A stretch of 64,000 nt of DNA from Octopus vulgaris (taxonomy: Eukaryota). This document shows, piece after piece, positions 826-30,346 of the stretch. Within the stretch, counting starts at the first letter, position 1; every line of letters begins with the position of its first letter. The position numbers and the translations under genes are program-made. The DNA is taken from the NCBI GenBank assembly GCA_951406725.2, contig OX597818.1, positions 47,678,001 through 47,742,000 of the forward strand. Reading direction: 5' to 3'. The notes under the pieces were generated by a model, which was given only the letters and a program-made list of their open reading frames with translations, did no database searches and was not told where the DNA came from.

Positions 826-1622
826 GTTCACAAGACTGTGCTAATGGTGGCTAGTCCAACGTTGTTGGCGTTGTGTCAGAATGGACCTTGTGAAGGACAT
901 CTTCAAGTTCAATTACCAATTAATCTCCGTGGCGTGGATGCTCTTCACTGTTTTATAATGTATCTTTATGAAGGACTCCTAAATTTAAATGAAGAGAGTG
1001 TAATGGAGGTGCTTAATATAGCATCTTATCTTCAAGTAGAAACTGTAGTAAAATTTTGTCTCTCTTTCTTGGACTCTGCAAAAGAACAAAACGTTGTACT
1101 TAAAGCTGCTCTCTCCTCTCCATATGACACCTGTTTGTATAAAGTACTTAATGAATCATTATCCAAATCATCAGAATCAACCACTAATAAAAATAGTAAT
1201 TGGGTTTACCAACCTGAAAGTACCAATATCAAAACTAAAATCATCCATAAACCTCTCAGTTTGTCCTCATCAGAAACGAGCATTGTTATTTCCGAACGGA
1301 AAGATAAAAGCTTCTATGTTGAAAATTTAAATTTCAAGGGCAACTCACTTTCCTCTTCTCAGGCTGGAGAAAGTTCTTCATCTAAGAATATTTCTGAAGC
1401 TTCTAATGAAGCCGTCCAAATACAGTATAATATAATCGATGATGAAATCAAACCAAATATAGCACCCCAGAATTCTTCAACTTCTGAAAACTTTGTAGTA
1501 CAAGAAATATCAGAAACATACTCATTTTCACAAAATAACAATCATTCTTCTCCCTCGTCTGATTCTCATTTATTAAAATTAAAAGAAACCAATGATAAAA
1601 TTGACTCAAAATTGCATCATAG
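826..1622 (+). CDS. Internal coding exon of a BTB/POZ zinc-finger transcription factor (C-terminal BTB part plus Ser/Asn-rich linker); upstream exon(s) not found in the window
   Basis: Acceptor ttgttgtag|G at 825/826 opens in frame as VHKTVLMVASP...FIMYLYEG.L.LNEESVMEVLNIASYLQVETVVKFC, which matches the BTB consensus (HkxVLaaxSp...YlYtG...A.yLqv..v...C). Ends at a consensus donor AG|GTAAGT (1622/1623), phase 2. Confidence 0.92.
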
Positions 1623-1682
1623 GTAAGTACACGTTTTCTAAGAAATGACTAGTTTAAATGAATTGTTTTCAGCATTATAATT

Positions 1683-2130
1683 TCAAACCAAAATCAAACC
1701 AAATCAAAATAGATGAACATCAATGGAATTTGTATCTTTGTGGTACCAGTGCCGGTGGCACATAAGAAAACCATCTGAACGTGGCCGTAGCCAGTACCGC
1801 ATCGACTGGCCTCCGTGCTGTGGGCACGTAACAAACACCATCCGATCGTGGCCGTTTGCCAGCCTCGTCTGGCACCTGTGTCGGTGGCACATAAAAAACA
1901 CCATCCGAGCGTGGCCGTTCGCCAGCCTCGTCTGGCACCTGTGTCGGTGGCACATAAAATCACCCACTACACTCTCGGAGTGGTTGGCATTAGGAAGGGC
2001 ATCCAGCTGTAGAAACACTGCCAGATCTGACTGGCCTGGTGCAGCCTTCGGGCTCCCCAGACCCCAGTTGAACCGTCCAACCCATGCTAGCATGGGAAGC
2101 GGACGTTAAACGATGATGATGATGATGATG
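1683..2130 (+). mobile_element. RTE-LINE 3'-end-derived repeat (family D) with (GAT)n tail; other copies at about 9378-9673(-), 10888-11295(-), 13730-13988(+), 19903-20382(-), 33307-33880(+)
   Basis: Repeated GTGCCGGTGGCAC..AAAAGCACC units, GTTGGCRTTAGGAAGGGCATCCAGCTGTAGAAA motif and GGACGTTAAACGATGATG tail. The same 3' sequence ends the RTE fragment at 6550-7915. Confidence 0.8.
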
Positions 2131-3096
2131 AATTTCAGAAGCTGCTGTCATCGTAAATCATAAGTACTCTTCAACCTTTTTGATATCAATCTGCATGAGA
2201 TCGCCCTTAGTTTTTTGATAGACATTTCCTATTTTAAAATGGTCTGCATTAAGGTCTTCCATCAAAATTTTATGTTAATTTTATGTTAATTTATGTTAAT
2301 TTATGCCAACTTCATAATGACAGTTATTTTACTAAATTCGTCATTATTTTCAAAATTAATTGAAACAAAAGTCAGTGAATTTCATCAGAAATATGGCAAT
2401 GAAAGGAGATAAGGAAATAGAAAAAGAAGTACAACTGTCTCTAAGAATAAAATAATTAAAATTCTGATAGTTTGTTAATGCCATGTTGAAAATGATGCCT
2501 CTCTGTTTTTAATATTCATTCAAGCATAAATCGTTCTGATTGAGTTTGAAAGATGAAAATTTGTTTTGGTAAGCATTTAATAAAAAAAAAAAAAAACATT
2601 TGTTCGGAAACCCTTTCCTGTCTCTCTCTGTCGACATCCTTTGTCCATTTTCATAAGGTGTAGTTCATAATGCACCATAAATGATGACATGCAAGATGCA
2701 CTTCTTGTCTAAAAATGAAAGGTTTCAAAAAATCCACCCTGGGTCCTGTATGCAAAGCTAGGTTTCCCATAAGCTAGTTTTGTCTCTGATGCTAGCTACT
2801 ATTGCAGACTTATTTTAATCAAGACAGTCTCTTCTACCTAACCTATCTATTACTTGTTTCAGTCATTAGACAGTGGCCATGCTGGGGCACCACCTTGAAA
2901 AAATTTTAGTTGTATGAATTGATCACAGTTTTTAATTTTTCCATTAAAGCCTTGTACTTATTCTATTGGTCTCTTTTGCGGAACCAATAAGCTATGGGGA
3001 TGTGAGCATATCAGTGCTGTGTTAAGCTGTGATGGGTGACAAAAGACAGATACGTGTGTGTGTGTTTATATATATAGTAATAATAATAAATGTAGC

Positions 3097-3336
3097 CTTT
3101 TAAAGCCTAGCCAGGCTCATGGGCTCAGTTTCCCTGTTTCTATGGCGTATGTGTTCTCCCACTGGACGGGACGCCAGTCCATCGTAGCCCGACTCATTTT
3201 TGCCAGCTGAGTGGACTGGAGCAACGCGAAATGAAGTGTTTTGCTCAAGAACACAACGCATCGCCCAGTCCAAGAATTGAAACCACAATCTTACGATCAT
3301 GATGCCGACACCCTAACCACTAAGCCACGTGCCTTC

Positions 3337-3338
<2 letters not shown>
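3097..3338 (-). mobile_element. tRNA-derived SINE family C; other copies at about 7950-8195(+), 10456-10700(+), 12490-12735(+), 27577-27900(+), 41464-41790(-), 46680-46915(-), 57581-57836(+)
   Basis: Box A-like TGGCTTAGTGG and box B-like GTTCGATTCC. Conserved body GTGTYCTTGAGCAAxACACTT..GTTGCTCCAGTCCACTCAGCTG. Confidence 0.8.
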
Positions 3339-3374
<36 letters not shown>

Positions 3375-3979
3375 CCATGCTAGCATGGAAAGCGGACGCT
3401 AAACGATGATGATGATGATGATGGTCTTCTTTCAGCTTCTGTCTATCACATCCACTCACAAGGCTATAGTGGAAGACACTTGCTCAAAGTGCCACACAGT
3501 GGGACTGAACCCGGAACCATGTGGTTGGGAAGCAAGCTCTTTTACCACACAGCCACACTTGACTCCATATTAATAATATTCAGTTAGAATGACATTTTTA
3601 TTATTACTTGTATTGCTATTAAAACTGAAGTGCTTTTGTAATGTTTTGCAATGTACTGCTAGATTGCTTTAAATATTTACATGTTTTAAGCACTTAAAAC
3701 TTCTTTTCTTGAATATATGCTGCTGAAATTGGGGATGTGTCTAACATGCCCATGCATCTTTTATGCCATCAAATACAGCATTTGATGTTGTGCACTCAAC
3801 AGTGATCAATCTGCTCTACTTTAGCCATTGGTCTCTGTGGCCGTATCATCATTAACTTATATCTTTTACAAAGCTCTTTTAACATGATAACATTTTGTAG
3901 CTTGATTTTTGTGTTTCAGAAATGTGACTAATTGGCCTTTTTATAGTATGTGCAATCAAAATTAATCATTTTAAATATA

Positions 3980-4385
3980 GGCATAGGAGTGGCTGTGTGG
4001 TAAGTAGCTTGCTTACCAGCCACATGGTTCTGGGTTCAGTCCCACTGCATGGCAACTTGGGAAAGTGTCTTCTACTATAGCCTCGGGTCGACCAAAGCCT
4101 TGTGAGTGGATTTGGTAGACAGAAACTGAAAGACGCCCATCATATATATGTATATGTATGTGTGTATGTATATGTTTGTATGTCTGTGTTTGTCCCCCCA
4201 ACATCGCTTGACAACTGATGCTGGTGTGTTTACATCCCTGTCACCGTTAAATGACGGGGACGTAAACTGATAGAATAAGTACTAGGCTTACTAAGAATAA
4301 ATCCTGTAGTCGATTTGCTCCACTAAAGGCGGTGCTCCAGCATGGCTGCAGTCAAATGACTGAAACAAGTAAAGGAGTAAAAGAG
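3980..4385 (+). mobile_element. tRNA-derived SINE family A with internal (TA/TG)n
   Basis: GGAGTGGCTGTGTGGTAAG...GGTTCAGTCCC head and GAAACAAGTAAAAGAG tail. Many copies in the window. Confidence 0.85.
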
Positions 4386-4889
4386 TATAGAATTATATTA
4401 GCTGAGAAAAAAAAAATCTATGCACTTGCAATTAGCCATGTATTATTATTGTTGTTCGTGGAAAATTATGGATATTATGAAAGAGAGTGATGTACATCTT
4501 TTATTTTATTTGTTAGAGTTCCAGTTTGTTGTTCATGCTTTACAGAACAGAACTGTTCCAGTTCAAGTATTGAAAAGTAGCATTTTAATTTCACCATCAT
4601 CATTATTTAACATCGTCTTTTCCATGCTTGCATGAGTGGAATGGAATTTGTTGAAGCTGATCTTCTATAGGCAGATACCCTTCCTCTCATCAACACATGC
4701 CTGTTTCCAATTAAAATGATATTTCCCCAGGGCCAGACATGTTTTCATGGAAGACTGGAAACGAGCAACATCATCATCATCATCATCGTTTAACGTCCGT
4801 TTTCCATGCTGGCATGGGTTGGATGGTTTGATTGCGAGCTGGCAGAAATGTTAGCGGTATTTCATCTGCCGTTATGTTCTGAGTTCAAA

Positions 4890-5085
4890 TTGGCCGACCG
4901 GTTCACGGAACACCTCTGAGACATCCGATTTGGCATTGACACCTTGGTCTCACACCATTTCCTCTCTACCAGTCACTCTTTGCAACACCTGTCCTTGCAC
5001 AGGGGCCATCTGGACTCCCATTTTTGCTGTGAACGGGGATTAATCTTCTCTCTTCACTCCTTTGTGCCACATGGGCTCAACTCTC
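4890..5085 (+). mobile_element. Penelope-like GIY-YIG endonuclease C-terminal fragment
   Basis: Decayed LADRFTEHL.DIR....VSHHF....HSLQHL...E.GLIFSL....PHGLN pattern. Confidence 0.65.
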
Positions 5086-6549
5086 CTCCCCACTTCATCT
5101 AACCTCTCCTCTCACACCTACTTCCTCCCACCCACCTTTCCTTTCTTGCTCGGACTCCTAACTTCTCTTCACTCCTACTCTCCTCTCTTCACTCCTAGCC
5201 ACCTTCTCCATTCCCCCTCTCCCTTCATTGTCACCCCTCCCTCTTAACCCTACCCCTACACAATCTTTTACTGGTTGATGTGCATATACATATATGTATG
5301 TTCATTTGTGCATACATGACATTGCATGGCCATGTGGTTAGGGTGCTGCACTCATGATTGCAAGATCATGGTTTACTCTGTAAATTGATTGGTGTTATGA
5401 AGGGCACCCAGCCATAGAAACCATGCCAAAACAGACAGCACCTGTCAAACCGTCCAACCCATGCCAGCATGGAAAACAGACAATTAATGATAATGATGAT
5501 AGCGAAGCTTTTTTTTTAGTTGTCCTATCTTTTAGTTTTAACTTTACTATACTTTGGATTTCTGAACTTGTGAAAAAAGCTGTTCTTGATTTTCTTTTAT
5601 CAAATTGTTTTAGTCATTTTTTTTTATACCTTTTTACTTTACAGCTTTTTGATAAACACATCCTCTTTTTTTTTCCAGTTTTGTATGTTTTGTCTTATGC
5701 TTAATTCTTTGTAAATTTTATAAATAATTTTAAAAGAAATCCTGAATGGCCATACTTATAATCTTTAAATTCAGCCTTAAACAGGTTAGGGTGCTAGAGA
5801 GTAGTTTGATGTTTCACTTCGTTCATGTATGTTGCATGCTTTCAACTGGCTCCAGTTGTCTGTTTTGGCATGGTTTCTATGGCTGGATGCCCTTCATAAC
5901 ACCAATCAATTTACAGAGTATATAGGCACAGGAGTGGTTGTGTGGATAGTAGCTTGCTTACTAACCACATAATTCCGGGTTCAGTCCCACTGCGTAGCAC
6001 CTTGGGAAAGTGGCTTCTACTATAGCATCGGGCCGATCAAAGCCTTGTGAGTGGATTTGGTAATCCATCCATCTTGATTACTTGCTATTCTTGGGAGGGT
6101 CATGGGAGTAGAGTCCTCAGGCTCCTTCTCTGTAGAGTCCTATCAGATGCAGCTGTCATTAGACCTTCTTGCAGGATTCCCAACCATCCAACCATCTTGT
6201 TCTTGGTCTGTCCCTGGTCACCTTCCAGTTGGCTTAGCTTGAAGAATCTGTCTTTCAGTTCTTTACTGTCACATTCTAATCACATGTCCATAGTACCAGA
6301 GCGGTGACCTGTCTGTGTAGAAACAGCAGCTCGACTTGGAGAGATTCCTTGATCTGTGAGTTATGCTGCACCATGTTGAGTAACATTATTTCAGAGATCC
6401 TTTGGAGGAATGCCATTTCTGCTACTTGCATTCCTGATTATACTCTTTTGGTCATTACTCAACATTCATGAACATAGGTGAGTATTTGGTAGTAGTGGGC
6501 ACTTTAAATTGAGAAGTTGAGCAAAGTCAATGGTATCTAAGGAGCTAGG

Positions 6550-7915
6550 AGTCATCAGGGGTCAAATAAATTGACAGGTCAGAGAGTCAGTCAGAAATTT
6601 TCTCTGTGTGTGTGTGGCATGTGTACAGGTACGATAAACACTGAAAATGTACAGAAAATAGACTCCATCAACTGCCAGAGAGGTAAGCAAGAGGTAGTAA
6701 ATAGCTTCCGTTATCTAGGTGACCAAGTTAGTAGTGGTGGTGGGTGCTCCAAAAGCGTAGCTGTGAGAATAAGATTATGCTGGGCAAAGTTCAGAGAGTT
6801 CCTACCTCTGCTGGCAACAAAGGGCCTCTCCCTCAGAGTGAAAGGCAGATTGTATGATCCCTGTGTGTGAACGGCTATGCTACAGAGCAGTGAAACCTGG
6901 GCTGTGACAGCTGAGGACATGTGTAGGCTTGAAAGAAATGAAGCCAGTATGTTTCGCTGGATGTGCTGTATCAGTGTGCATGTTTGACAGTGTAAGTTGG
7001 GCAGAAGAGGTGTCATATGTGATGTACAAGAGAGACAATTGTGCTGGTATGGTCATGTGATGCATATGGACGAGGTCAGCTGTGTAAAGAGGTGCCGATC
7101 TCTAACTGTGGAGGGAACCTGTAGTAGGAGGTAGATCCAAGATGACATGGGGTGAAGTGGTGAAGCACGAACTTTGAACTTTGGGCCTCACTGAGGCAAT
7201 GACTAGTGATTGAGACCTTTGATGATATGCTGTTGTTGTTGTTAAGCAACAAGACGGGTAAGGGTGATTAGGTGATGGTCTAGGGCTTAGGGGCAGGAGA
7301 CCCCAGACCTTGGAAAAAAAAAAACTTTGGTCGTCTTGTTGTAGTCGAGGGCTCTTCGTTGACGCCCAACACCACTGGGAGGTGGCCCTCAAAGTTGCTG
7401 GAAATGGAGATTTCCAGGTCCAAATTCTTGGATGGCTGATGATATGCTGTGTTTTAGAAGACTCGTCAAGCCAAGTGAAATTGTAGTCGTGGCTGATGCT
7501 GGTGTCACGTAACTAGCATCCATGCCAGTGGCATGTGAAAAGCACCTTTCGAGCATTGGGCTTCACGGAGGAAAGTAGCTGATACTGGTGGCACATTAAA
7601 AACTCCTTTTGAGTGTTGGGCTTCATGGAGGCAATGACTGAGACCTTTGGCATTATGTTGTGCTTGAAAAGCAGCCCCATCAAGCCAAGTGAAATCACAG
7701 TTGTGGCTGATACCGGTGTCATGCAAATGGCACTTGTGCCAGTTGCACGTAAAAGCACTCATTACAACTCTTGGAGTAGTTGGCATTAGGAAGGGCATCC
7801 AGCTATAGAAACCATGCCAAATCAGACCGGAGTCTGGTGCAGCCTTCTAGCTTGTCAGCCCTGGTCAAACCATCCAACTCCTGCCAGCATGGATAATGGA
7901 CATTAAATGATGATG
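6550..7915 (+). mobile_element. 5'-truncated decayed RTE-clade LINE with 3' UTR; related fragments at about 14220-14710, 15840-16280, 21490-22310 and 33890-34200
   Basis: VVNSFRYLG...AVRIRLCWAKFREFLPLL..KGLSLRVKGRLY...ETW, typical of the RTE post-RT region. Followed by the family-D UTR and (GAT)n tail. Confidence 0.8.
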
Positions 7916-10900
7916 ATATATATATATCATTTACCATCCGTTTTCCATGTGGAGGCACGTGGCTTAGTGGTTAGGGTGTCAGCATCATGATTGTAAGATT
8001 GTGGTTTTGATTCCTGGACTGGGAGGTGCGTTGTGTTCTTGAGCAAAACACTTCATTTCACATTGCTCCAGTCCACTCAGCTGGCAAAAACGAGTAACGC
8101 TGCGATGGACTGGCATCCCGTCCAGCTGGGGAACACATACACCATTGAAACCGGGAAACCAGGCCCATGAGCCTGGCTACGCTTTAAAAGGGCGCATTTA
8201 TTATATATTATTTATCCGTTTTCCATGCTGGCATGGCTTGGACAGTTTTACAGGATCTGGCAAGCCACGGGGTTGTACTGAGCCCCAGTCTGTTATATGT
8301 TTTTTACAATTGAATGCCCTTCCTAATGCCACCACCTTACAGTGTGCAGTGAGTATTTTTTTTTTCCCTTGTCAAGCAATGGCATGCAACCTCATTCCTC
8401 ATTGAATTCACCTACTGCAGTTTTCCAGGTCGACCAGAGAGCCATCTCAAGGAGATTGGCACAGCAGCTGAAACCAACTCAAGGTGGTTGTGATTGATTA
8501 GAGATTGCAAGTGGAATCTTTCTGCAGGTGAAGACTAGATCAGTTCTTGCTGCCCTACTCAGGTAATGTGTACAGGCTAAAGGGCAAAACACTTGTGACC
8601 CTGAGATACCTGTTGATGATAGTGAAGGATTACCAGCATTGAGGTGGATTTAGAAGAATTTTCAAAACCTCTGAGTAGCTCCTGCAGTTTCTTATTTCTT
8701 TACTGCCCACAAGAGGCTACACACAGAGGGGACAAACAAGGACAGACAAACGGATTAAGTCAATTATATCGACCCCAGTGTGTAAGTGGTACTTATTTAG
8801 TCGACCCCGAAAAGATGAAAGGCAAAGTCGACCTTGGCGGAATTTGAACTCAGAACGTAGCAGCAGACGGAATACTGCTAAGCATTTCACCTGGTGTGCT
8901 AACGTTTCTGCCAGCTTGCCACAGTTTCTACATGAGCAAAGCCTCTCTGATGTTACTTCACCCGAAGAAAGGATTGCCTCCCTTATACTAACTGTAACCA
9001 GTAGATAAAAGATGTACAAAATTGCTTTATCATCACCGAAATACCAACATTTGGAGAGAGCATACACATATACAAATATTATTTTGATGCCAAAATTCCA
9101 TCAGATTTTACATTTGTGATCATCTTGTTACTGAAGATCATAAATATGGCACTAGTGGTTGTATCTTATCTTCCAACCTCAAAATAAAAACTATAAATTG
9201 AGTACCTTTTTCTCCAGTTTGTAAATACAAGCATTTAAAGAATTATTCACACGTGTCTCTATTTTTATATGTAAACCCATTTGTCTGTATATTTGTATAT
9301 TTGATGAAGATGGAGAGCAAGCAGAATCATTAGCATGTCAGACAAAATGCTTAGCAGCATTTCTTCTGTTTTTACATTCATCATCATCATCGTTTAACAT
9401 CCGCTTTCCATGCTAGCATGGGTTGGACGGTTCGACTGGGGTCTGGGAAGCCAGGAGGCTGCATCAGGCCCAGTCTGATCTGGCAGTGTTTCTACAGCTG
9501 GATGCCCTTCCTAACACCAACCACTCCGTGAGTGTATTGGGTACTTTTTACGTGCCACCGGCACAGGTGCTAGGTGAGGCTGACAATGGCCACGATAGGT
9601 TGGTGCTTTTTATGTGCCACCTGCATGGAGGCCAGTCGAGGCGGCGCTGGCAACGGCCACGTTCGGATGGTTCATTCTGAGTTATAATTTTGTTGAGTTC
9701 AGCATTGCCTTTCATCCTTTCAGGGTCGATGAAATAAGTACCAGTCATTCACTGGGGTTGATGTAATTGACTAGCTCCCTCCCACCAAATTTCAGGCCTT
9801 TGCTTATAATAAGATATTTGTATATTTGATTACTAGTTTTACTCTCATGGTGAAGAATGGTGGAAATAATTTATAGGAATTGACTCTGATTTCTTTGTCC
9901 TTCCAGACTGGATGACACTTGTATTGGTTGTATTCTGAAGTTTGTATTACAAATGAAAATATTACTTGGATTCATGACTCTTATCCTTTCTACCATGTGC
10001 ACAAAGCCTGAAATTTGGGGGTGGGGGCTAGTCAGTTACATCAACCCAGTGTTCAACTGGTATTTATTTCATTGACCCTGAAAGAATGAAAGGCAAAGTT
10101 GAACTTGGCAAAATTTTTAACTGTTAAGTGGGGTTTCAGCTATTTCAACATTTGACCCCTCACCCAGATGATCCAGCCAGGGTTGATCATATCCCAGTAT
10201 GCAACGCTGTAGCAGCTAACCACTGGTCTGTCCCCTTTATTCAGATCCATCTAGGGGCCGCCCTCTCTGCACATTTTTGTGGTTGAATCTGTGTTCTTCC
10301 TCTTTGCTAGACCTGTAACTCCAAGTTCAGCCAGAGCTTTGCAGAGTAAATTCCTCACCAAATATTGCAATTTTTTTTTTTTGCCTTAGTTGTTTCTCAT
10401 TTGTAATCTTAAAACAGTTCTTTCTACTTCTTAAGGGTACATATGTGGACTAGTGAAGGTATGCGGCCTAGTGGTCACGGTATTGGACTCATGATTATAA
10501 GATTGTGGTTTTGATTCCTGGAGCAGGCAATACATTATGTTCTTGAGCAAACCACTTCATTTCATATTGCTCTGGTCCACTCAGCTGGCAAAAATGAGTA
10601 ATCCTGCTATGGACTGGTGTCCTGTCCAGAGATGAATATAAAATCCACATAAACTGGGCAACTGGCCTTAAGAGTCTAGATGACTTGGAAGGAGTTTTAT
10701 ATATGAGGACTATAAACGGAATCTTGGAGTTACTATGATATTTCCTCTCACAAACCTAATTGGTATTATCTCACACCCTATGAGCCGCAGAAGAATGCTT
10801 CTAAGTGTTTGCTCAACTTGTTGGAAATAGCACCCAAATCTCTCTTAATTCACACTCTACCATCTTAAAAAGAAAAGAAGGACATTGTCATCATCATCAT

Positions 10901-11672
10901 CATCATCGTTTAACGTCCGCTTTCCATGCTAGCATGGGTTGGACGATTTTGACTGAGGGCTGGCGAACCAGCTGGCTGCACCAGGCTCCAATCTTGATCT
11001 GGCAGAGTTTCTACAGCTGGATGCCCTTCTTAACGCCAACCACTCCGAGAGTGTAGTGAGTGCTTTTTACGTGCCACCGGCAGTGCGGCCAGTCAGGCGG
11101 TACTGGCAACGACCTCGCTCGAATCTTTTTACACATGTCACCAGCACAGGTGCCAGTAAGGCGATGTTGGTAACGATCACGCTCGAATGGTGTTTTTTAT
11201 GTGCCACTTGCACAGAAGCCAGTTGGCTGCTCTGGTGACGATCATGCGCGGATGGTGCTCTTGGCACCCTACTAGCACGGGCACAAGTGCCAATGTTGGA
11301 CTACATTGCATAAATATAATGTCTGGGAATAAGACAGGATAGTCTTCACAGGAGTGCCATTGATCATAGGTCAACCTGATCAGGACAACCCTGGGGCTAA
11401 ACAATAACAACAGCAACAACCACAACTTGTCTCTCTGCTACCAGTAATACTCAGTTTCTCTTGCAGTTTCAACACTTCCTTCTGTTTATATTTATCTTCT
11501 TTACACAGTATTTCCGCCTTACTTCAAACTTAAAACAACTGTTTGCCTACACACTACTGCTGCTACTGCTCCTGCTGCTACCTCTTTCCTTGTTTCCACT
11601 TTAACATCAACAAAGCTGAAACTGATGAGTTCAATAAAAGAATCTGGTGCTATGAATTGATAATCTTTCATA

Positions 11673-15567: not shown

Positions 15568-16341
15568 ATTTTGCCGTTTATATATACATACATATGTACT
15601 ATTGGATACAATATTAATTTAGGTTAGGCAGTGAGCTGGCAAAATGCTTAGTGGCATTTTGTCTGTCTGCACATTCTGAATTCAAATTCTATCCAAATTG
15701 ACTTTGTCTTTTATCCTATGGAGTAGGACTTTGCTTTTAGAACTGTTACCTCTACTGGCAACTTCATAGCTTTTAGAAGTAATAGTACCCTGAATATAAG
15801 TAATCTGTCCTTCCCTAGTTTTGAGTGAAGGGGAGATTCTATGATGTTTTTGTACAAAGTATGATATTGCATGGCAGCAGACTTGGTTAATGAGAATTAG
15901 CAATTAACAATTCACTGGAGAATGTGCAGAGTCTTGAAAGAAATGAAGTAAGCTTGTTTTGCTTATTGTGTAATATTACTTCATGATTAATGGAGCACAA
16001 ATGAGCCAAATTTGGTATAAGTGGAATTAGCTGTAGCAATAGAAGACAGAAGACTGCTGGTGTGGACACACAATTTCATTTGGAGTGATGACATGTATGT
16101 AAAGAAGTGGCAAATGGTCCAAGGGGAAGGAACTGAGGAAGACTTTGGAATACATGGGAAGAATTGATGAATGCTGATCTCAAAATGCTGATGATCACAG
16201 AGATGACATTGTAACATTTGGAAAGACACTATTGGAAAAGACTCACCTAACCCATACAAACATGAAAAAATAGCTGTAAAAAGTACGAGAATAGATCCAC
16301 TACTAATTTGTATTTATTTTTTTCTGATATCTTTTATTTAG

Positions 16342-17107
16342 ATATTTTCTTTCTTTTATACTAGATTTATTGTTTTCTAAACCTTTCACGCAGTCTCTAG
16401 TTTCAAAGCCTAATACATGGCTAAATTCTTTCATTGACAGTGATCTGGTCCATGACAAGCAGTCTAGTCCACTGTTGGATCAAAAGGGTGAAGATGGTCA
16501 GAGTATTGCTGATTATTCTTACAAAATATCCTCATCCCCTGAAATGTCAAGGCAAGTACATATAAATACATTAGATGGAAGTGACTGTAACACTGAAGAA
16601 GTACTTTCATTGGAGCTTAGTGGCTGTGATCTTTTACCATCTCAGATACAACCAAATTTGCCATCCTCTGTCAATTTACTTGAGTGTCCGACATGTAAAA
16701 AGACATTTTCAACTAAGGGGAACTTGAAGACCCACCAGAGGAAGCATGAAGGAACACTTTTCAAATGTCCCCGATGTCCACGAAAATTCTTCAGCCAAAG
16801 TCTTCTGAATGAACATCTTAAAATTCACGATGGGAAAGTCTACAACTGCGATCACTGTGGGAAAGAGTTTTTCACCAGATGGGGTGTAAGATTGCATCAG
16901 ATGTCTCATGAAGGCCACTACAAAATGACTTGTAAGATATGTGGGCGTGGTTTCAATTCCCGAAGTACTTTCGAAGCTCACCAGAATATGCATGAAGACA
17001 ACCGACCTTATAGGTGTGAACGTTGCAGGAAATGTTTTTATAACAACCGTTATCTTAAAAAACATTTAAAGATTTGCAACATTCCCTTAAAAAAATTACA
17101 AATGTAA
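16342..17107 (+). CDS. Terminal coding exon A: five tandem C2H2 zinc fingers (last one C2HC)
   Basis: Fingers: CPTC..HQRKH, CPRC..HLKIH, CDHC..HQMSH, CKIC..HQNMH, CERC..HLKIC. Pyrimidine tract plus tttag at 16340-41 gives a phase-2 acceptor with an open frame. A second AG at 16363-64 would be phase 1. Stop TAA at 17105-07. Confidence 0.88.
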
Positions 17108-17187
17108 TTTATCATCGAGAAAATTCAAACGAAAATTTTACTCTTGAAGAACATTTGGAGAGTCACAACAACCTAGACAAGTATCTT

Positions 17188-17268
17188 CAGCTAGCAGGCC
17201 TTGCTACTCTTGACTGATGAGGAGCAAAGACTCAGAAACATGCATGTCTCTAGATGCAGGCCTAGCTG
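17188..17268 (+). ncRNA. Type I hammerhead-ribozyme-like motif (Penelope-type, palindromic stem III)
   Basis: CTGATGA (17214-20), gGAG-caaaga-CTCa, GAAA (17235-38), CATGCATG, then TC, giving a GTC triplet at 17246-48. Extended stem I: cagctag..aggcc.tgc..tcttga pairs with tctaga.gcaggcctagctg. The 10.1-11.1 pair is G-A (non-canonical). Confidence 0.65.
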
Positions 17269-17570
17269 GTGGGGGCTGCTTGTCTCCCCTTCGTAAATAT
17301 AAAGCACTGACTGCCTTCTCACATTTTATTTTTTCTATCGTTTTCCAGAGTTCCATCTAATTTCTTTCATATTCTCAAAAGACTTAATATCATCAGAAAA
17401 CTAGAGCTAACTCTTAGCTCCCCTGTTCTGTTTGCATCTCAACATCCACACAACATCCCCATCTTAAGGGGTCACACTCGATAACAAGTACAATCTCTCC
17501 TCTCCTATACTCTCATTAGCTCTCCTTTCTGTTCTTGTGTATTCCAAAAGCACTAATTTAACTTATAAAA

Positions 17571-17576
17571 AATAAA
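17571..17576 (+). promoter_or_regulatory. Candidate poly(A) signal for ZnF exon A
   Basis: AATAAA about 465 nt after the stop, followed by GT-rich sequence (gtgtgccttgtgt). Confidence 0.5.
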
Positions 17577-17618
17577 TTAGTGTGCCTTGTGTATAATTGG
17601 TTATCAAATGTGGAGTTA

Positions 17619-18885: not shown

Positions 18886-18924
<39 letters not shown>

Positions 18925-19152: not shown

Positions 19153-19399
19153 GTGTTAATTTTTTTTTTTACTTATCACGAAATCAAATTGTGTAAGGAA
19201 AGGAGTTTCATTGGTTCTTAGTATTTGTTTTACTGAATGTAGATTGGGCCCATGGAGTGTCAAGGTTAACACTTGTTAAATCAGAATATAGATAAAACTA
19301 AATTCTATGCAGCACTTAGTTCAATATTCAACCATTTCAGTCAACATCTTATCCTTGCCACTATCATAAATATGCTGTTTATTGATATTTTAAATCTTA

Positions 19400-19771: not shown

Positions 19772-22387
19772 TATATCAATTTGTGGTCTGTGTGTGTGTG
19801 TGTGCATGCGTGCGTGTTAAATCATATTGAACATGCTCGAGTGCACTTGGATGTGAAAAGACCTGCTGAAGAGGTAGCCCTGGGAGAAAATTCTCTTCTT
19901 AGACATCATCATCATCGTTTAACGTCCGTTTTCCGCGCTAGCACGGGTTGGACGGTTCGACCGGGGTCTGGGAAGCCAGGGGCTGCACCAGGCTCCAGTC
20001 TGATCTGGCCGAGTTTCTATGGCTGGATGCCCTTCCTAACGCCAACCACTCCGCGAGTGTAGTGGGTGCTTTTTACGTGCTACCTGCACAGGTGCCAGGG
20101 GGGGTCCGGCATCGGCCACGATCGGTTGGAGCTTTTAACGTGCCAGCGGCACGGAAGCCAGCCAAGGCAGCGCTGGCAACGTTCGGATGGTGCTTTCTAT
20201 GTGCCACTGGCACAGAAGCCAGTTGGAGCGGCGCTGGCATCGGCCACGTTCGGATGGTGCTTTTTATATGCCACCGGCACAGAAGCCAGTCGGAGTGGCG
20301 CTGGCATCGGCCCCGTTCAGATGGTGCTTTTTATGTGCCACCGGCACAGAAGCCAGTCAGGGCGGCGCTGGCATCGGCCACGTGTGTATCATTTTATATC
20401 TATAGCTATTGATCGATCTATCCATCCATCTATTCACACACACATACACACAGCTATCTCTCTGTATATTTATGCTTTCATTTTTATTTTTTAAATTTAA
20501 TCTAATAAAATAGGAGCTGATCCCTAAATAAGACACAAAGCTCTATTGAAATTATTTTGGTTATTTTGTTCTTGTTCTCCACCTGGTTTCATGGAACACT
20601 TGTTATTTGTCTTGACTAATTGAAAGTAACTTGGTTGTCACATTACTAACAATCTCCTTTGAATCTGCATGAAGTATTTTCCTGTGATAATTTTGGTTTA
20701 TATATAATGTAGGCGCAGGAGTGGCTATATATATATATATTACTCCTGCGCCTATATATATATATATATATATGGCTGTGTGGTAAGTAGCTTGTTTACC
20801 AACCACATGGTTCCGGGCGCACTGCGTGGCACCTTGGGCAAGTGTCTTCTACTATAGCCTCGGGCCGACCAAAGCCTTGTGAGTCGATTTGGTAGACGGA
20901 AACTGAAAGAAGCCCGTCATATATATGTATATATATATATCATCATCATCATCATCGTTTAACGTCCGCATATAATATTAATTCGAGACAAAACCACTAT
21001 TTTGCAAAACAAACAAGGAAAGACTTAATCAATACATAAAAATTTTTAATAGAAAGAAATAAACCCGAATTAATATTATATAATATTTTACTATAAAATT
21101 GGATTTAATCCTAAATCTGATTTTTTCCCTGTAAATTTGGATTTATTCCCTAATATTTATTATATATATATATATATATATGCGTGTGTGTGTTTGTCCT
21201 AGCATTGCTTGACAACCGATGCTAGTGTGTTTATGTCCCCGTTACTTAGTGGTTCGGCAAAAGAGACTGATAGAATTAAGTACTGGGCTTACAAAAGAAT
21301 AAGTCCCGGGGTCGAGTTGCTCGATTAAAGGCGGTGCTCCAGCATGGCCGCAGTCAAATGACTGAAACAAGTAAAAGAGTAAAAACAAAAAAGAGAATGT
21401 CCTCCTATTAAACTCTCATCACTTCTCTCAACCCTTATAACCGTACTTAAATTTAGTTTGGCCTTTTGACAATTCAGTGAAAATGCAGAGAACCTCAAAA
21501 GTCTTAGTGACAAAGTTCAGAGAGTTACTACCTCTGTTAGTAATGAAGGGCCTCTCCCTCAGAGTGAAAGGCAGATTGTACAATGCCTGTGTATGAACAG
21601 CTATGCTACATGGCAGTGAGACATGTGCTGTAACCACTGAGGGTATGCAAGGACTTGAAAGAAATGAAGCCAGTATGCTTCGGTGGATGTGCAATGTCAG
21701 TGTGCATATATAACGGTGTAAGTGATTTGAGAGAAGAACTGGATATATGAGGCATCTGATGTAGTGTGCAAGAGAGAAGACTGCACTGGTATGGTTATGT
21801 GATGTATTTGGATGAAGACAGTTGCATGAAGAGGTGCCGGTCTCTAATTGTAGAGGGAACATGTGGAAGTGGTAGACTCAGGAAGATGTAGGATAAAGGA
21901 TCTATAGATGTTGGGACTCACAGAGGGGATGGTAGGGGACTGAGACTCCTGGTTGTTTGCTGTGCTTGAAAAGGTGCCTCAAGCTAAGTAAAAGCAGGGT
22001 TGTTTTTGCATATAGGCTGGCCCCCTGCAATCCTCTTCAGCTGAGCATCCCTAATCTTGTGAGTTCATAGGGGCTGGTGCTACATAAAAAGCACATGTAC
22101 TGGTGCCACATAAACGTACAAATGCCGGTGTTGCGTGAAAGCACCTGGTACATACTATAAAGTGGTTGGCATTAGGAAGGGCATCCGATCATAGAAACCA
22201 TGCCAAAACAGATGACTGGAGCCTGAACAGCTCTTCAGCAGGTCAGCTCCTGTGAAACCTGTGCCAGTATGTAAAATGGATGTTAAATGATAATTATGAT
22301 GATGATGATGAATAAAAAGGAGCAGGCATGGGTGTGTGGTTAAGAAGCTTACTTGGCAACCACGTGGTTTTGGGTTCAGTCATATTG

Positions 22388-22616
22388 CACCTTAGGCCAG
22401 AGTCTTTCTTGTCTTGGGCCACCTTGGACCAGAGTCTTTCTTGTCTAGGGACACCTTGGACCACAGTCTTTCTTGTCTAGGGACACCTTGGACCAGAGTC
22501 TTTCTTGTCTAGGGACACCTTGGACCAGAGTCTTTCTTGTCTTGGGACACTTTGGACCAGAGTCTTTCTTGTCTTGGGACACTTTGGGCCAGAGTCTTTC
22601 TTGTCTTGGGACACCG
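22388..22616 (+). repeat. 32-bp minisatellite, ~7 copies
   Basis: Unit gacaccttggaccagagtctttcttgtctagg, directly following a SINE-A head. Confidence 0.9.
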
Positions 22617-25397
22617 TAGGATAGTTAAAAATAAACTATGTTCATTATTTGGAAACATGGATCATGGAGAATTTTACAAGTTGAATTTGCCAAGCCCCAA
22701 GATTATGAAAAAAGGAGGGGAAGAAACTCATAATTTTGAAATCAAGGCAGTTACGGAATATCAGAAGATATCTGAAAGTCTGTTGGTTCACTGGTATTCA
22801 ACACTGAAATTAAGTTGTAAATAAATTGAACCGAAATATATATATATATAAGTTATATACAAACAAAATTTACACATTAAAAGAATTTACCTAAACTATT
22901 TACAAAGGTTGTAATCTAAAAGAATAGATGGCTAGAATCAAAAATAATTTCTGTTATCTGTCATGAATTTGGTGCTAGTAATTGTCCAGTAGCTATGCTT
23001 TCCAAGTCTTTTGACCCTTTAGGATTTTAACCATACTTAGGAAAAATAAGTACTGGAGTCAATTTGTTCAACTAAAACCCTGTAAAGCAGTGCTCCTGTA
23101 TGGTCCCAATCCAATGATTGAAGCCAGTAAACGATAAAAGATGATGAAAATACCAAACTCTAACCATGACCTAAATGAAGTAAACCACACATGCACGCAT
23201 GCATGTATACACACACACACACACATACACACACACACACACACACACCAAATTTACCAAAAGCAGCAGTTCAACCTAGTTAGCAAATTCTAGAGACTAT
23301 TTTGAAATATAGCCATTTCAGAATTAGATTGACTCACATATTATTAAAAAAATCTGGAAGATTTTGTAGAACACAATAGTTTCCTTATAATCAGGCCAAT
23401 TGTGATCCTAAGTTTTACCATTGTTGTTTATAGATTCCAATGTTGAATTAAGTATTTCATTGGAGAAATTATGTTTATACCAGTCAAGTCTTCTTTTATG
23501 GTTTACCGTAAATCCTCGAGGTCAAAATCCCTAGTGTGTACTATATACGAGGTTAAAAATGAAAATTATTTTCTAAGCAATGTCCAAGTCTCTATTTGCT
23601 GTCCGGCAATGTTTATTCAGACGCATTTTGTGATGTCGGGTACGAAGATACCTTAAGCTAATCCTGAAAGCAATGAAGTCATAAAAGAATCATCCATAAC
23701 TTGCAATAAGCAACATTTATTAAACGTTATTACTGTTATTACTGTTATTTCTTTATTTTCTGCAAACAAAATGCACAAAAAAGCTACAAGTTTGCATTAT
23801 GTTATATATACAATAATAATAAAGGATTTTACTGTATACATTTTTACAAACTAAGGATGTTATATAGACCTCCTTGACTCAAGTTAGAGAAGGGGTGCGT
23901 ATTATGCACAAGATTTAGGTTTTTCAGAGGTACAGCCCCCTAAAAATCCCCTGCGTAGTATACTAAAGGGCAGGCTATACTTGAGGATTTATGGTATTTC
24001 CTTTTTTATCCCCCTAGATCTGTGGTTCTCAGCCAGGGTCCACATGACCCTTTGGAATCCATATAAGATTTTGTTGTTAAAATCTATTTGCAATAAATTA
24101 GTTATACTTCTACAACCCACAAAATATTTTAATTTTTGTTTTATATAATTCCTAATAATATTTAATTATAAAAATACAGGAGGATTTTTTTTTATATACA
24201 TGAATGGCTGTGGAAGTCTAGTTTGCATAAAATAAGAATCAAAGGGTTCCATAGGCATAAAATGGTTGAGATGAAGAATAAGATATCTCTGCTGTGACCA
24301 AAGAAAATTTTAAACTCATTTTCACCTCTCGTAGCTAAAAGTTTCCCAGTGCTTCTGTTTCATGAAATTTTTCTGTAAATCTTTCATTAGTCATTATCAA
24401 ACATCCACCTTCTATGCTGGCATAGGTGGGACAGTTTGACAGGTGCCGGCCAGATAGAATCCTGCACCAGATTTCTGAGACTGTTTCAGCAGGATTTTTA
24501 CAGCTGGATGCTCTTCCTAATCCCAATCACCCAGCAGAGTGGACTTAGTATTTTTTACATGGCAGAAGCACAAATGAAAGTGGTGAGCTGGCAGAAATGT
24601 TAGCACGCCGGGTGAAATGCTTAGCGGTATTTCATCTGCCATTACGTTCTGAGTTCAAATTTCGCCTAGGTCGACTTTGCTTTTCATCTTTCGAGGTCTA
24701 TTAAATAAGTACCAGTTACGCACTGGGGTCGATATAATCGACTTAATCCATTTGTCTGTCCTAGTTTGTCCTCTCTGTGTTTAGCTCCTTGTGGGTAGTA
24801 AAGAAATAGGTATTTCGTCTGCCATTTCGTCTGAGTTCAAATTCCACCGAGGTTGACTTTGCCTTTCATCCTTTTGGGGTTGATAAATTAAGTATCAATT
24901 ATGCACTGGGCTCGATATAATCGACTTAATCCCTTTGTTCTTGTTTGTCCCCTCTATGTTTAGCCCCTTGTGGGCAGTAAAGAAATAAGAAGCACAAGTG
25001 AGGTCAGTTTTGGCAAGGTTTTTACGGCTGGATGCCCTTCCAAGCACCAACCACTTTACAGTGTGGACTGGATGCTTTTTAAGTGGCACCTGCACTCACG
25101 GGGTCACCAAGTAACCTACAAGACAAAAATCTTTTGAGAAGGGAGGGGGAATTGAAGGAGGTGCTCTTGTGTCAGATGATGAAAGGTTGTAGTTGATACA
25201 ATAAATTCTGTTTGAGATATTCACTAAGAAAACAGCTGAGAATTACACCAAAATATATCTAGAGGTAATACTCCTGAATACAGGAATACTCACAGGTAAT
25301 ACTCACAGTCATTATTTTTAAGTTGCCACACAAGTTTATGTTGAGTTACTGTAAATCTTTATATCCCAGAATTCTTGGATGTGGCAGGCACTATTAA

Positions 25398-25618
25398 CCC
25401 TTTCATTACCAACCCAGCTGAAACCAGCTCTGGCTCTGTAGTACAAATATCTTGTTTTCATAAGTTTTGAATTAAAATCTTCCACCAAATCTTCTTCACA
25501 ATTTATGTTCCTAACACTAGCTGAATGATAACTGAGTTATTTTACTAAATTCTCTGTTATATTTAAAATGAATGAAAGAAACACAGAGCATCTCAAAATA
25601 AATACGGTAACAAAAGGG
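25398..25618. mobile_element. piggyBac-like MITE; related copies at about 2172-2405, 18025-18213 and 26436-26550
   Basis: TTAA|CCCTTTcaTTACC...GGTAAcaAAAGGG|TTAA. Confidence 0.7.
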
Positions 25619-28004
25619 TTAAAACGCTTAAGTATATCTAGTATTGTCACCATACTTGTCTGCTAAATGTTCATTCAATTTTGAAGTTGTCTCCCCTGCT
25701 TTGACCAGCGTTAATAATTCATTAGTTTCTTTTCCTTTCACTATGGGTAAATTAAAATTAGAAATTTTTTTTTTTTGCTTTCTGCATTATGTTATCTCCT
25801 ACTTATATATTCCAGGTGTCATCTCTGGCATATTTCTCCACAGTCATTAATTTATGCAGGTGTTTTGCTAGTTACTTAAAAAGTAACTCAGGAATGTTAT
25901 TTTGAAGTGGTGGTTTGCCTTAGTGTTGGTCAGCTGGAATAAACTGTTAGTAGGTCTATGTGCTCGCTCCTAAGTCATATAACTGGTACAACTACTACTA
26001 CTGCTAATATTATTGATAGCAGTCACTGCTCTTTAGCATCAAAATAAGGTGTAGGCATGGGTGTGTAGTTAAGAAACTTCCCTTGCAACCACATAGTTTT
26101 GGGTTCAGTCCCTCTGTGTAGCACCTTATGCAAGTGTCTTCTACCATAGCCCTGAGTTAACCAATGCCTTGTGAGTGTATTTGATTGATAGGAACCCGTT
26201 GTATGTGTGTGTGTGAGTGTGTCTGTGTAACTTAGTGGCTCAGCAAAAGAGACAGACGGAATTAGTATCACACTAAAAAAAAAAAGAAACAAACTACTTG
26301 TGTTGATTTGTTCAATTAAACTCTTCAAAGTCCCAGTCTAATGACAGAAACAAATAAACAATAAACGAGAACGTCACAAATTAATTCCACCACATTTAAT
26401 ATCAATTTTCTGTTTATTCATTTTGTGTTGTTTAACCCTTTTGCTAGCAAACAACATATCTAAGACCACCCCTGGTTCTATAGTACAAGTTGTTTTACTA
26501 AATTTAATATATTCAGAATTAATTGAAACAAAAATATATTAACAAAAGGGTTAATGTATGCTGTCCATGTTAGCATGACAAGGACTGGTTCAAATTTGAG
26601 GCAAGATTTTTATGGTTAGATGCTCTTCCTGTTGCTAAACCTTATTTATTCTCTTTACTCTTTTACTTGTTTCAATCATTTGACTGCGGCCATGCTGGAG
26701 CAACACCTTTATCATCCTCATCATCATCATCATTTAGCGTCCGTTCTCCATGCTAGCAAATCGACCTCAGGACTTATTCGTTGTAAGCCTAGTACTTATT
26801 CTATCGGTCTCTTTTGCCGAACTGCTAAGTTACAGGGACGTAAACACACCACCATCGGTTGTCAAATGATGCTGGGGGGGGGGGGACAAACAGACACACA
26901 AACATATACACACACACATATACATATATATATATATATATATATACACATATTCGATGGGCTTCTTTCAGTTTCTGTCTACCAAATCCACTCACAAGGC
27001 TTTGGTCGGCCCGAGGCTATAGTAGAAGACACTTGCCCAAGGTGCCACACAGTGGGACTGAACCTGGGACTATGTGGTTGGTAAGCAAGCTACTTACCAC
27101 ACAGCCACTCCTATGCCATGTTTTTTTCTTTTTTTCTATCAGTGCTCATGTTATATCAAAGGTGTAAACAGCTTATGAGAAGCATTAATATTGATGTGGT
27201 ATTGTATTTCAGAGTGTGTATATTTTGAAAGGTCAAATAATTCAACAAAATAGACAAATTTATTTTGGGTTACCACTTCATAATTTAGTAAATTTAAGAG
27301 ATTTAGTGTCCTTCCAAACACTTCAATGATTTCATGCAAGCATGCCACCCACCATGGTCCCACATGCATGTTCTTAATTTGTCAATATTTGCCATTCCAC
27401 TGTCCTGAAGCAAGCTGTCCACATAGATTAAGAAGTAATATTGGTAAATATCATTATGTGCAGAGTGAACAGCAAGAATCAGAACATTAACTTCTATAAA
27501 TAATAAAAAGTTTTGAATGGTACAACAATGCTCTATAATACAGACAATGGGCTATATACCTGTTGTAATTTAGTCAAGGCACGTGGCTTAGTGGTTAGGG
27601 CATTCGACTGACGATTGTAAGGTCGTGAGTTCGATTCCCGGCGACGCGTTGTGTCCTTTAGCAAGACACTTTATTTCACGTTGCTCCAGTCCACTCAGCT
27701 GGCAAAAATGAGTTGTACCTGTATTTCAAAGGGCCGGCCTTGTCACACTCTGTGTCACGCTGAATCTCCCCGAGAACTACGTTAAGGGTACACGTGTCTG
27801 TGGAGTGCTCAGCCACTTACACGTTAATTCCACGAGCAAGCTGTTCCGTTGATCATATCAGCTGGGGCCCTCGTCGTTGTAACCGACGGAGAGTGCTCCT
27901 TTAATTTAGTCAACCATAGTCTGATATGATATTTCGGAATAATATTCCTTCTTCAGATATTCTTAGATGAAGTTGCTGCTATAATCGGTTTTCAAGAAAA
28001 CCGA

Positions 28005-28515
28005 TTGTCTGTATTATAGTGAATTGTCCATATAATAATTGTCCATATATAGCCCATTGTCTGTATTATAGTGCATTGTCCATATAATAATTGTCCATAT
28101 ATAGCCCGTTGTCTGTATTATAGTGAATTGTCCATATAATAATTGTCCATATATAGCCCGTTGTCTGTATTATAGTGCATTGTCCATATAATAATTGTCC
28201 ATATATAGCCCATTGTCTGTATTATAGTGAATTGTCCATATAATAATTGTCCATATATAGCCCGTTGTCTGTATTATAGTGCATTGTCCATATAATAATT
28301 GTCCATATATAGCCCGTTGCCTGTATTATAGTGCATTGTCCATATAATAATTGTTGACTGTATTATAGTGAATTGTCCATATAATAATTGTCCATATATA
28401 GCCCGTTGTCTGTATTATAGTGCATTGTCCATATAATAATTGTCCATATATAGCCCGTTGTCTGTATTATAGTGCATTGTCCATATAATAATTGTTGACT
28501 GTATTATAGTGTATT
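28005..28515 (+). repeat. 52-bp minisatellite, ~10 copies (two shortened)
   Basis: Unit ttgtctgtattatagtgcattgtccatataataattgtccatatatagcccg. Confidence 0.9.
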
Positions 28516-28888
28516 GTTGTACCATTCAAAACTTTTTATTATTTACAAACAATACACAATGCTTCAAGTGAACTACAGTACTCTCCTATTAAATTCCGTA
28601 TTTATACTTAATATGTTCTGGCAGATTTGAATGTTATGCTAATCACTGTTGTATTTCATTATTCGAGAACAGTTTCTCTTTTTAGATGAATGTCTGATTA
28701 TAACACACTAAATTCATTAACATAAGCCCCAAAGATCCCTTATGGATTCCTCTGAAAGTTATTCTCCAATGAAGATATACAAAAGTGATTAGCATAATCA
28801 TGTTTGAATCTGCTGGAATGTATTAAAAATGAATTTGTAAGTCATCATTAGTTATTTGAATTATTTTTTTTATTAATAATTATTAGTT

Positions 28889-29461
28889 ATTACCTCCACA
28901 TTAAAGAAGGCAGAGGTATTGTTTCAGTCGTATTTGTTTGTCAGTGGACAAGATTTCTCCAGAACTGCTGGATGGATTTGGATGAAACTTTCAAGGATGT
29001 TTGGCCTTGTGACTGGCACAAAGTAATTAGATTTTGGGATTGATCTGGTACCGGACAAGGATTATTTGTTATATTTACTTTACATGATTATGATCTTATG
29101 TTAACTTTTAAGGTTCTCAATTATCTCCCTTTAGGCTGTAACTATTTTGAATGGTGAATTTGTTAACTTTGGCTTATTTTAGATAAGGATAAACTATTTA
29201 TTAGTGTTACTAAATTTTATACTGCCACCTTCACATTTCATGACTACCATTGGGATCGATTAGGTACCAGACAAGGAGTTTGCATTATTTTTCCGTTTTT
29301 TTTTTACTTAATTTTTGAGAGTTCATTTTTAGTATTCTTGTTTGTGAGAGCAGTCAAGTTCATTTCAGATATTCTCATTTTAAAAATCATCTCTGGCTAA
29401 TCGTTGAGAGGACATTTGTGTTGCCTTGGTGGAGATTTGCACATTCTGAGTGCTCTTGTTT
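28889..29461 (+). mobile_element. Non-autonomous Helentron (HINE)
   Basis: Starts ATTACCTCC..gaggtattgttt and ends ccttggtggagatttgcacattctgagtgctcttgttt, the typical HINE subterminal motifs. Related to 43182-44136. Confidence 0.65.
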
Positions 29462-29562
29462 AAATTACTTTTTATTCAAAGCTGTGTTTTGAATTTTTAA
29501 CCATTTTGAAGAATAACACTTATTCTCCTTGATTAATTTTTTTTTTTCCTCTCTCATTTCAG

Positions 29563-30346
29563 CAGCAGTCCTATTGAGGTGGAATTAGAGAGTAGTTCAT
29601 CTCCAACTGTCTATGAAATTGAAGAATGTGATTCTCAGGAAAAGATGGTTATTGGACAAATCGGTGCCACTGCCTCCAGTGATAAAGTGGAATTCATCTG
29701 TACAATCTGCCATACCTCATTCCTATTTGCCGAAATCGTTGTGTCACATTTGAGAAATGTGCACAATGTTCTCTTAGATGATATTCCAGAATTTGTTGTA
29801 GTTGGTAGTCACTCCAGTGGTGAGAATATTGCCAATAGCAACTCTTGTATAGAATGTGGTTTCAGTTCTCAGAATCCTGATTATTTACCGTTTCATCGAT
29901 ATTTTCAGCATGCTGTGCCATTGCCCGCTAATTGCACCCTCTTCAAATGCGAGTTCTGTAATGCAGAATTTATAAGGAAACGTGGCCTTACTGAGCATAT
30001 ACAACAGTTTCATAAAGATGAAGCACATTTCATGTGTGAACATTGTGGCCGGACATACAAGATCCAAAACTGTCTTCAAAAGCATATTTATAATTGTCAT
30101 AATAGTGAGCGCAAATGGTCATGCCTTTATTGTGGACGGACATTTAAAAAACAAGACCATTTGAAAGTTCATATTCGTTTGCACACTCATGAAAAACCAT
30201 TTGCATGTCATGTCTGTGACTATAAAAGCACAACAAAAGGTAACCTAAAAGCACATTTGATGAGACGACATTCCATAGATATTGATACTGTCGAACATTT
30301 TAAAATTAATAAAAACAAAACAACTCCCATTGAAATCAGTCTATAA
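29563..30346 (+). CDS. Terminal coding exon B: six C2H2 zinc fingers
   Basis: Fingers: CTIC..HLRNVH, CIEC..HRYFQH, CEFC..HIQQFH, CEHC..HIYNCH, CLYC..HIRLH, then a THEKPF linker and CHVC..HLMRRH. Long polypyrimidine tract plus cag at 29560-62 gives a phase-2 acceptor. Stop TAA at 30344-46. Confidence 0.9.

Follow-up and report, generated by a model that had tools for sequence, protein, structure and literature searches.

An octopus BTB-zinc-finger gene with two likely alternative last exons and a predicted fingerless form

Results

This study concerns a BTB-zinc-finger gene of Octopus vulgaris located in a 64,000-nucleotide (nt) stretch of contig OX597818.1 (positions 47,678,001 to 47,742,000 of the forward strand, assembly GCA_951406725.2; hereafter termed the window), in which an exon carrying most of a BTB domain is followed by two zinc-finger exons, here named A and B (Table 1). 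An original prediction, made from the sequence of this window, had proposed that the BTB exon is joined to either finger exon in the manner of Drosophila lola, fruitless and mod(mdg4). Support for a constant BTB region with two putative alternative zinc-finger last exons comes from database models in three species of Octopus, and we consider it likely that a single gene generates both endings through alternative last exons spliced in cis, together with a form devoid of fingers.

The greater part of the BTB domain was found to reside in the constant exon (Pfam PF00651, E 4.7e-11), which is 100% identical to residues 43–307 of the Octopus vulgaris / O. sinensis named protein P0001. This identity bears out the original guess that the DNA is that of a cephalopod. 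The sequence directly 5' of this exon is TTGTTGTAG, and the domain begins in a 42-codon first coding exon which is preceded by an in-frame stop upstream of its ATG. A single donor ends the constant N-terminal BTB region and, as had been predicted, it was seen in the sequence to end in AG/GTAAGT (the slash marking the splice site) in phase 2. An N-terminal BTB domain combined with a C-terminal C2H2 array, without BACK or Kelch domains (Pfam PF00651, PF00096), represents the ZBTB layout. N-terminal heads of the kind possessed by certain paralogues (see Discussion) were considered for the octopus gene and ruled out by the in-frame stop ahead of the ATG.

Table 1. Features of the octopus BTB-zinc-finger locus (window positions unless a genome coordinate is given; aa, amino acids).
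Feature	Position	Strand	Description
First coding exon	G000:C5:47674626-47674751		42 codons, MVYEQ...YKIK, phase-0 donor; 3.4 kb before window
Constant exon	826-1622	+	Rest of BTB domain and Ser-rich linker; donor CATAG/GTAAGT, phase 2
Extra 99 nt of the original prediction	16342-16440	+	Open frame behind plausible TAG acceptor
Exon A, coding part	16441-17107	+	81-aa linker and 5 fingers (last C2HC), stop TAA; BTB+A = 529 aa
A' cassette	16441-16555	+	115 nt; ends at weak internal donor CAA/GTACAT
AATAAA candidate, A	17571-17576	+	First after exon A, 464 nt past stop; repeat at 17613 just beyond
Exon B	29563-30346	+	45-aa acidic linker and 6 fingers, stop TAA
AATAAA candidate, B	30695-30700	+	First after exon B stop

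Exon B forms part of an open reading frame (ORF B, 29537-30346) with six C2H2 fingers by pattern and three stretches by Pfam zf-C2H2. Its acceptor is strong, with pyrimidines at 21 of 22 positions, and its predicted position at 29562/29563 is borne out by the database models, with a NAGNAG twin at 29566 whose alternative use yields isoforms of 568 and 567 aa, both of which are found in databases. Models of the BTB-B type (P0001, P0006, P0007 and P0008) were retrieved for O. vulgaris, O. sinensis and O. bimaculoides, and a relative with 55% identity, P0003, likewise has the BTB-B structure. ORF A (16328-17107) contains five C2H2/C2HC motifs by pattern, and Pfam zf-C2H2 finds five stretches; the pattern scan agrees with the suggested count of five fingers in A versus six in B, and the separate stop codons ascribed to the two exons were also observed, being TAA in both.

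The acceptor of A had been placed at 16341/16342, which proved to be misplaced by 99 nt, as every model that enters A does so at 16440/16441 (TTGACAG/TGATCTG). All three database models which reach A (P0015, P0016 and P0002) join at this position, the junction residues being HH-S-DLVHDKQ in P0015 and P0016 and QH-S-DLIHNKP in the Argonauta model P0002, and the residues YFLSF expected at the formerly proposed junction occur in none of the database proteins compared. Based on the evidence of these models the acceptor at 16342 was dropped in favour of 16441, and the intervening 99 nt, absent from all database models seen, are most likely intron. P0015 (O. sinensis RefSeq XP_036359106.1) enters A at 16441, leaves it at 16555 and continues into B in a different frame, and its C-terminal end could be reproduced exactly from the window sequence. 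The internal donor at 16555 matches the consensus at four of seven positions, and splicing from it to B shifts the frame to a stop after QQSY, thereby giving a 350-aa protein with a BTB domain and no fingers. P0016, an O. bimaculoides UniRef model, is a BTB-A protein of 527 aa that matches the window at 97% over 220 aa and is joined at 16441. In the Argonauta model the A portion begins at the corresponding residue, and the A linker continues into B without a change of frame. The assertion that A and B can never both be translated in one mRNA consequently stands for the fingers and falls as a general rule, since two models splice a portion of A to B.

Comparison of the window with O. bimaculoides revealed differences at 6 of 219 residues in A, 5 of 307 in the constant part and 3 of 260 in B. 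The A frame is open in O. bimaculoides with its zinc ligands unchanged, and three of the six A differences fall within the fingers, which is no faster a change than that of the A linker. Against Argonauta, identity amounts to 34/80 residues in the A linker, 82/145 in the constant linker and 195/256 in B, and the similarity of the A linker starts at the same residue. Recognition residues differ between the A and B fingers. The helix TKGNLK is common to the first A finger (near 16715) and the last B finger (near 30230); beyond it no wider similarity between A and B was found, the two resembling each other only as generic fingers.

Two arguments previously advanced for alternative use of the exons carry little weight. 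A shared phase is near chance, given that four phase-2 YAG sites precede the first finger in ORF A and five in ORF B, and the possession by each exon of its own AATAAA is a weak argument, since this signal occurs at 0.92 per kb in the window and the copy nearest to B (30308) lies within the B coding region. The suggestion that further zinc-finger cassettes might lie in the flanking DNA was pursued by a six-frame C2H2 pattern scan of the window plus 100 kb on each side (264 kb), in which no third array was found: of eight frames listed, A and B are the finger arrays and the other six contain one or two pattern matches in repeat-like sequence. An opposite-strand cassette array was equally absent from the 264 kb. 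A Pfam scan covered 116 of the 118 other plus-strand ORFs (at least 75 aa) in an interval extending beyond the window by 10 kb on its upstream side and 60 kb on its downstream side; no DNA-binding family was found in them, the scan yielding one reverse transcriptase and one sub-threshold domain of unknown function (DUF).

Contigs from three of four sequencing runs include portions of A located past the internal donor, at 16563-17264, although that these derive from RNA is a guess, and the cover at 17190-17300 stems from a repeat. Eight coding variants were present in these A contigs, four silent and four missense, with no stop among them.

Discussion

The findings of this study are best explained if cis-splicing joins a constant BTB exon to one or the other of two last exons, a mechanism that suffices because both tails lie in order on one strand. 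According to the database models three products would arise, namely BTB-B (567/568 aa), BTB-A (527–529 aa, from the model and the window respectively) and the fingerless BTB-A'-B (350 aa). B would be the ancestral and usual ending, whereas A, present in octopods, would have been inserted into the last intron at a later time, and its use with cleavage after it would exclude B. The BTB-A and BTB-B proteins are predicted to pair via the same BTB domain and to read different DNA sites, so that mixed forms may be possible through BTB dimers, while use of the internal donor of A would generate a fingerless BTB that may dampen its partners.

Several points weigh against this interpretation. The full BTB-A protein is known from a single UniRef model, P0016, and full A is missing from the RefSeq models retrieved for O. 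sinensis and for O. bimaculoides, which yield B or A'-B; the Argonauta model P0002, too, shows no A fingers. The support behind P0016, as behind each of the models, is not visible; RefSeq variants in general rest on RNA alignments. Among the four sequencing runs, no contig with a joint was found over 16000-17600, and no contig covers 16000-16539, the stretch containing both candidate A acceptors; the A junction therefore stays unobserved, and no read or contig was seen to cross the junction of the BTB exon with either tail. The ratio of four silent to four missense variants is no test of selection. The polyadenylation sites of A and B are candidates only, and DNA binding, dimer formation and the tissue pattern of the forms are predictions.

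An alternative, which we regard as unlikely, is that the true exon is confined to the front of A, where a 115-nt cassette that shifts the frame (or, in Argonauta, a linker insert that preserves it) would tune a single BTB-B gene, with the A fingers either read only through failed splicing or being a fading remnant. The internal donor is used by a RefSeq model, P0015; the Argonauta model likewise exits A before the fingers, and no RefSeq BTB-A protein was found. The fingers of A are nevertheless intact, and in the comparison with O. bimaculoides they have not diverged more quickly than the A linker (three of six differences), the internal donor is weak (four of seven consensus positions) and a full BTB-A model does exist in P0016.

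That A is instead a separate nested zinc-finger gene, starting from Met 16544 (MSRQ...) under its own promoter, with the BTB-A model being an annotation fusion, appears quite improbable. Coding similarity to Argonauta starts at the acceptor, 34 codons upstream of this methionine, the BTB donor is joined to 16441 in models of three species, and no stand-alone A protein was found among proteins of 121–387 aa (in a search with the A linker one of 14 candidates matched, and this protein carries a BTB domain). These observations are set against the in-frame ATG at 16544, the thousands of stand-alone finger arrays in octopus (approximately 8,900 candidates), and the O. bimaculoides model P0009, which gives B its own first exon and demonstrates that such annotation splits occur.

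The least probable explanation, and a very doubtful one, is that each tail has a promoter of its own and its transcript is trans-spliced to a BTB RNA as in mod(mdg4). In its favour are the resemblance in layout and a unique 103-codon ORF (phase-2 donor at 22793) that is the annotated first exon of B in P0009 and could indicate an internal promoter. Against it, the two tails follow the BTB exon in order on a single strand, the scan of the 264 kb found no cassette array on the opposite strand, and the A'-B form presupposes read-through of A into B; mod(mdg4), as described in PMC13490949, uses five promoters, and its variable exons are spread over both strands. The ORF in question (22513-22824, + strand) is single-copy, is located behind a 32-bp tandem repeat and has no Pfam match; its O. 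bimaculoides counterpart is annotated as the first exon of the BTB-less B protein P0009, and it may represent either an internal start or an error of gene prediction.

By layout, the octopus gene with its two probably cis-spliced endings resembles a two-tail lola, without being a member of the Tramtrack group. As in lola, a constant N-terminal BTB domain would be combined with alternative C-terminal C2H2 exons, and tramtrack, broad and fruitless also possess a constant BTB with alternative C2H2 ends; mod(mdg4) similarly has one BTB core with alternative 3' exons encoding distinct C-terminal domains. The proposed likeness to lola, fruitless and mod(mdg4) is fair as regards layout, and fails both for the number of tails and for family membership, the latter because the BTB domain lacks the FxLRWN Tramtrack motif. 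Neither the BTB-only form nor the large lola-like arrays of the scallop genes figured in the original prediction. The motif is absent from the BTB N-terminus, MVYEQAYLDQDHGS, and the pattern F.L[RK]W matched 1 of 298 collected proteins, one that does not belong to the octopus gene. As far as the accessible text of PMC11426971 goes, FxLRWN defines the Tramtrack group and is found in arthropods only, Drosophila BTB-C2H2 genes of the non-TTK type have one isoform, no reliable hexamer models were obtained for O. bimaculoides ZBTBs, and lola has 20 isoforms, 17 of which have different C2H2 ends.

Tails in the lola group are many and have one or two fingers each, whereas the octopus gene has two tails of five and six fingers; lola/mod(mdg4)-like arrays comprise some 20–30 ends as opposed to its two, and the octopus gene, unlike lola, shows no sign of needing trans-splicing. 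The variable exons of mod(mdg4) are found on both strands, in contrast to the two ordered, same-strand exons of the octopus gene, both of which encode C2H2 fingers; in the portion of PMC13490949 that is accessible, mod(mdg4) is credited with 31 isoforms made only by trans-splicing and with five promoter clusters on both strands. Classical dimeric ZBTB factors such as BCL6, ZBTB17/MIZ1 and myoneurin likewise consist of a BTB domain and C2H2 fingers, the octopus gene having five or six, and it would differ from them by swapping whole finger arrays. The best solved-structure match of its BTB domain is BCL6 (E 4e-11), and the best 60 of 78 PDB matches of the relative P0014 are of BCL6, KEAP1, BACH, ZBTB and Kelch type, with none of TTK type. 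The layout probably has an origin separate from that of the fly Tramtrack-group genes, within a molluscan ZBTB family in which exon arrays have been built repeatedly.

This family was examined by means of BTB trees, a quick one of 132 out of 149 rows and a careful one of 42 chosen rows (LG+G4), all rows deriving from searches with the octopus gene and no Tramtrack sequence being included. The octopus gene was placed within a 33-row clade (100/100) together with scallop genes that have 3' arrays and abalone and octopus genes that have 5' arrays, set against nine outgroup rows comprising Kelch-type sequences and two vertebrate-type ZBTB sequences; the matching split in the 132-row tree received an SH-aLRT value of 95. 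Within the trees the octopus gene is not grouped with P0227 and P0233, nor is that grouping rejected (p-AU 0.13), and in the free tree it is not grouped with the scallop array clade, a grouping that is again not rejected (p-AU 0.32); both results also tell against the interpretation offered here.

An initial search returned two bivalve proteins labelled as isoforms, and a further search with one of these matched 389 proteins among 811 candidates; 119 of the best 120, all of them RefSeq models, fall into nine groups from four scallops. Each group has a common front of 555–650 aa and 4–29 distinct tails among those listed, with isoform numbers of up to X37. These tails carry C2H2 arrays, PF10523 (BEN), PF13842 (transposase zinc ribbon) or PF12012 (DUF3504). 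In all 119 proteins the variable part opens with G, D, E, V or A, which implies that the junction is of phase 1, in contrast to the phase-2 junction of the octopus gene, whose tails, again in contrast to the scallop ones, are of C2H2 type only. Pecten maximus LOC117336493 and Mizuhopecten LOC110459952 resemble the octopus gene in having an N-terminal BTB domain, a long low-complexity linker and alternative terminal domains of DNA-binding type, and the scallop array genes give an indirect sign of the intron that the octopus gene has inside its BTB domain. In scale and in the mixture of domain types these scallop relatives match mod(mdg4), and a further Argopecten gene joins one front to either six fingers or a CENP-B-type helix-turn-helix. 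The scallop and abalone arrays are known here from database models as distinct from genome sequence. The scallop models (P0004, P0017–P0135 and P0137–P0140, from Pecten, Argopecten, Mizuhopecten and Ylistrum) are the best mod(mdg4)-scale case seen; three Pecten and four Argopecten genes are situated on equal-sized contigs within each species, which suggests one chromosome.

The mirror image of this layout is exemplified by Haliotis rufescens LOC124116851, with 12 isoforms that have a common 638-aa end including the BTB domain and different heads (FLYWCH, THAP and others). Members with such a layout are P0192, P0194 and P0285–P0297 in Haliotis and P0206 and P0222 in Octopus, their heads being of FLYWCH, THAP, CENP-B helix-turn-helix or C2H2-like type. 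Most of the octopus paralogue exons inspected begin at the same intron position and reach a stop without encoding fingers. BTB paralogue exons form two tandem clusters, at G000:C3:148.96-149.17 Mb and 151.33-151.38 Mb, with at least five and at least four matches, respectively, and the exons examined in them stop after a motif of the P-[VI]-x-L-F type. At G000:C10:34402766-34403017 (- strand; L004/L034) there is a near-identical copy of a BTB paralogue exon on C11 (L003); an in-frame TGA interrupts the BTB domain of this copy, which is likely to be a recent pseudogene.

We put forward, tentatively and with slightly more doubt than assurance, the proposal that molluscs evolved a lola/mod(mdg4) system of their own on a non-Tramtrack BTB domain, a single ZBTB family having gained DNA-binding exons behind it (scallops, by the dozen) or ahead of it (abalone, octopus); the octopus gene might then represent an array at its start, consisting of an old six-finger gene, an octopod second finger exon and a switch to a fingerless, dampening form.

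With regard to the age of the two tails, B aligns finger by finger over approximately 203 aa with the distant BTB proteins P0227 (37%) and P0233 (35%), scoring 165 and 162 bits where the best generic array scores 88, and no other match to B was found in the genome at 1e-20 among the best 150 of 9,399 candidates scored. Judged by such alignments, tail B is old. Tail A was seen only in octopods, which does not imply absence beyond them as squid and cuttlefish genomes were outside the search. Its origin as a recent duplicate was rejected, the best other octopus array reaching just 42% (best 150 of 8,948 candidates scored). Homology of A to a scallop tail is not supported, the best match (33%; P0084/P0061 type) being below the 39–41% of generic octopus arrays. 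In the reverse search with a similar scallop tail, A was not among the 25 matches listed (150 of 8,863 candidates scored), and ESM Atlas searches with P0227 and tail A returned generic ZBTB or C2H2 clusters only.

The octopus and scallop models are already public, and the locus, taken alone, amounts to a modest instance of alternative last exons, part of which public annotation already contains. No paper describing arrays of alternative 3' exons in molluscan BTB genes was found, supplements and most subscription papers being outside the scope of the search. The accessible text of PMC10027918 notes octopus THAP and CENPB proteins with BTB domains, though not isoforms, and that of PMC12513265 retains one isoform (the longest) per gene without mention of BTB. 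Gene counts based on the longest isoform, as in the latter, would miss hidden transcription factors of this kind. Should the proposed interpretation be true, the swapping of DNA-binding ends on a BTB core would not be peculiar to the arthropod Tramtrack group and would have re-arisen in molluscs on a classical ZBTB. A locus with just two tails, the one old and the other younger, would offer a simple place to study the origin of exon arrays, and the scallop genes a place to ask whether large arrays need trans-splicing.

Concerning the neighbourhood of the gene, a 751-codon open frame encoding a Z-alpha domain (Pfam PF02295, E 2e-7) is located approximately 90 kb before the window, at G000:C5:47587344-47589596 (+ strand); it is probably the large exon of ADAR1 and provides a synteny marker. 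Within the window, broken frames of mariner-type transposases, read from their translation, are present on the minus strand at 44623-45548 and 38291-38689.

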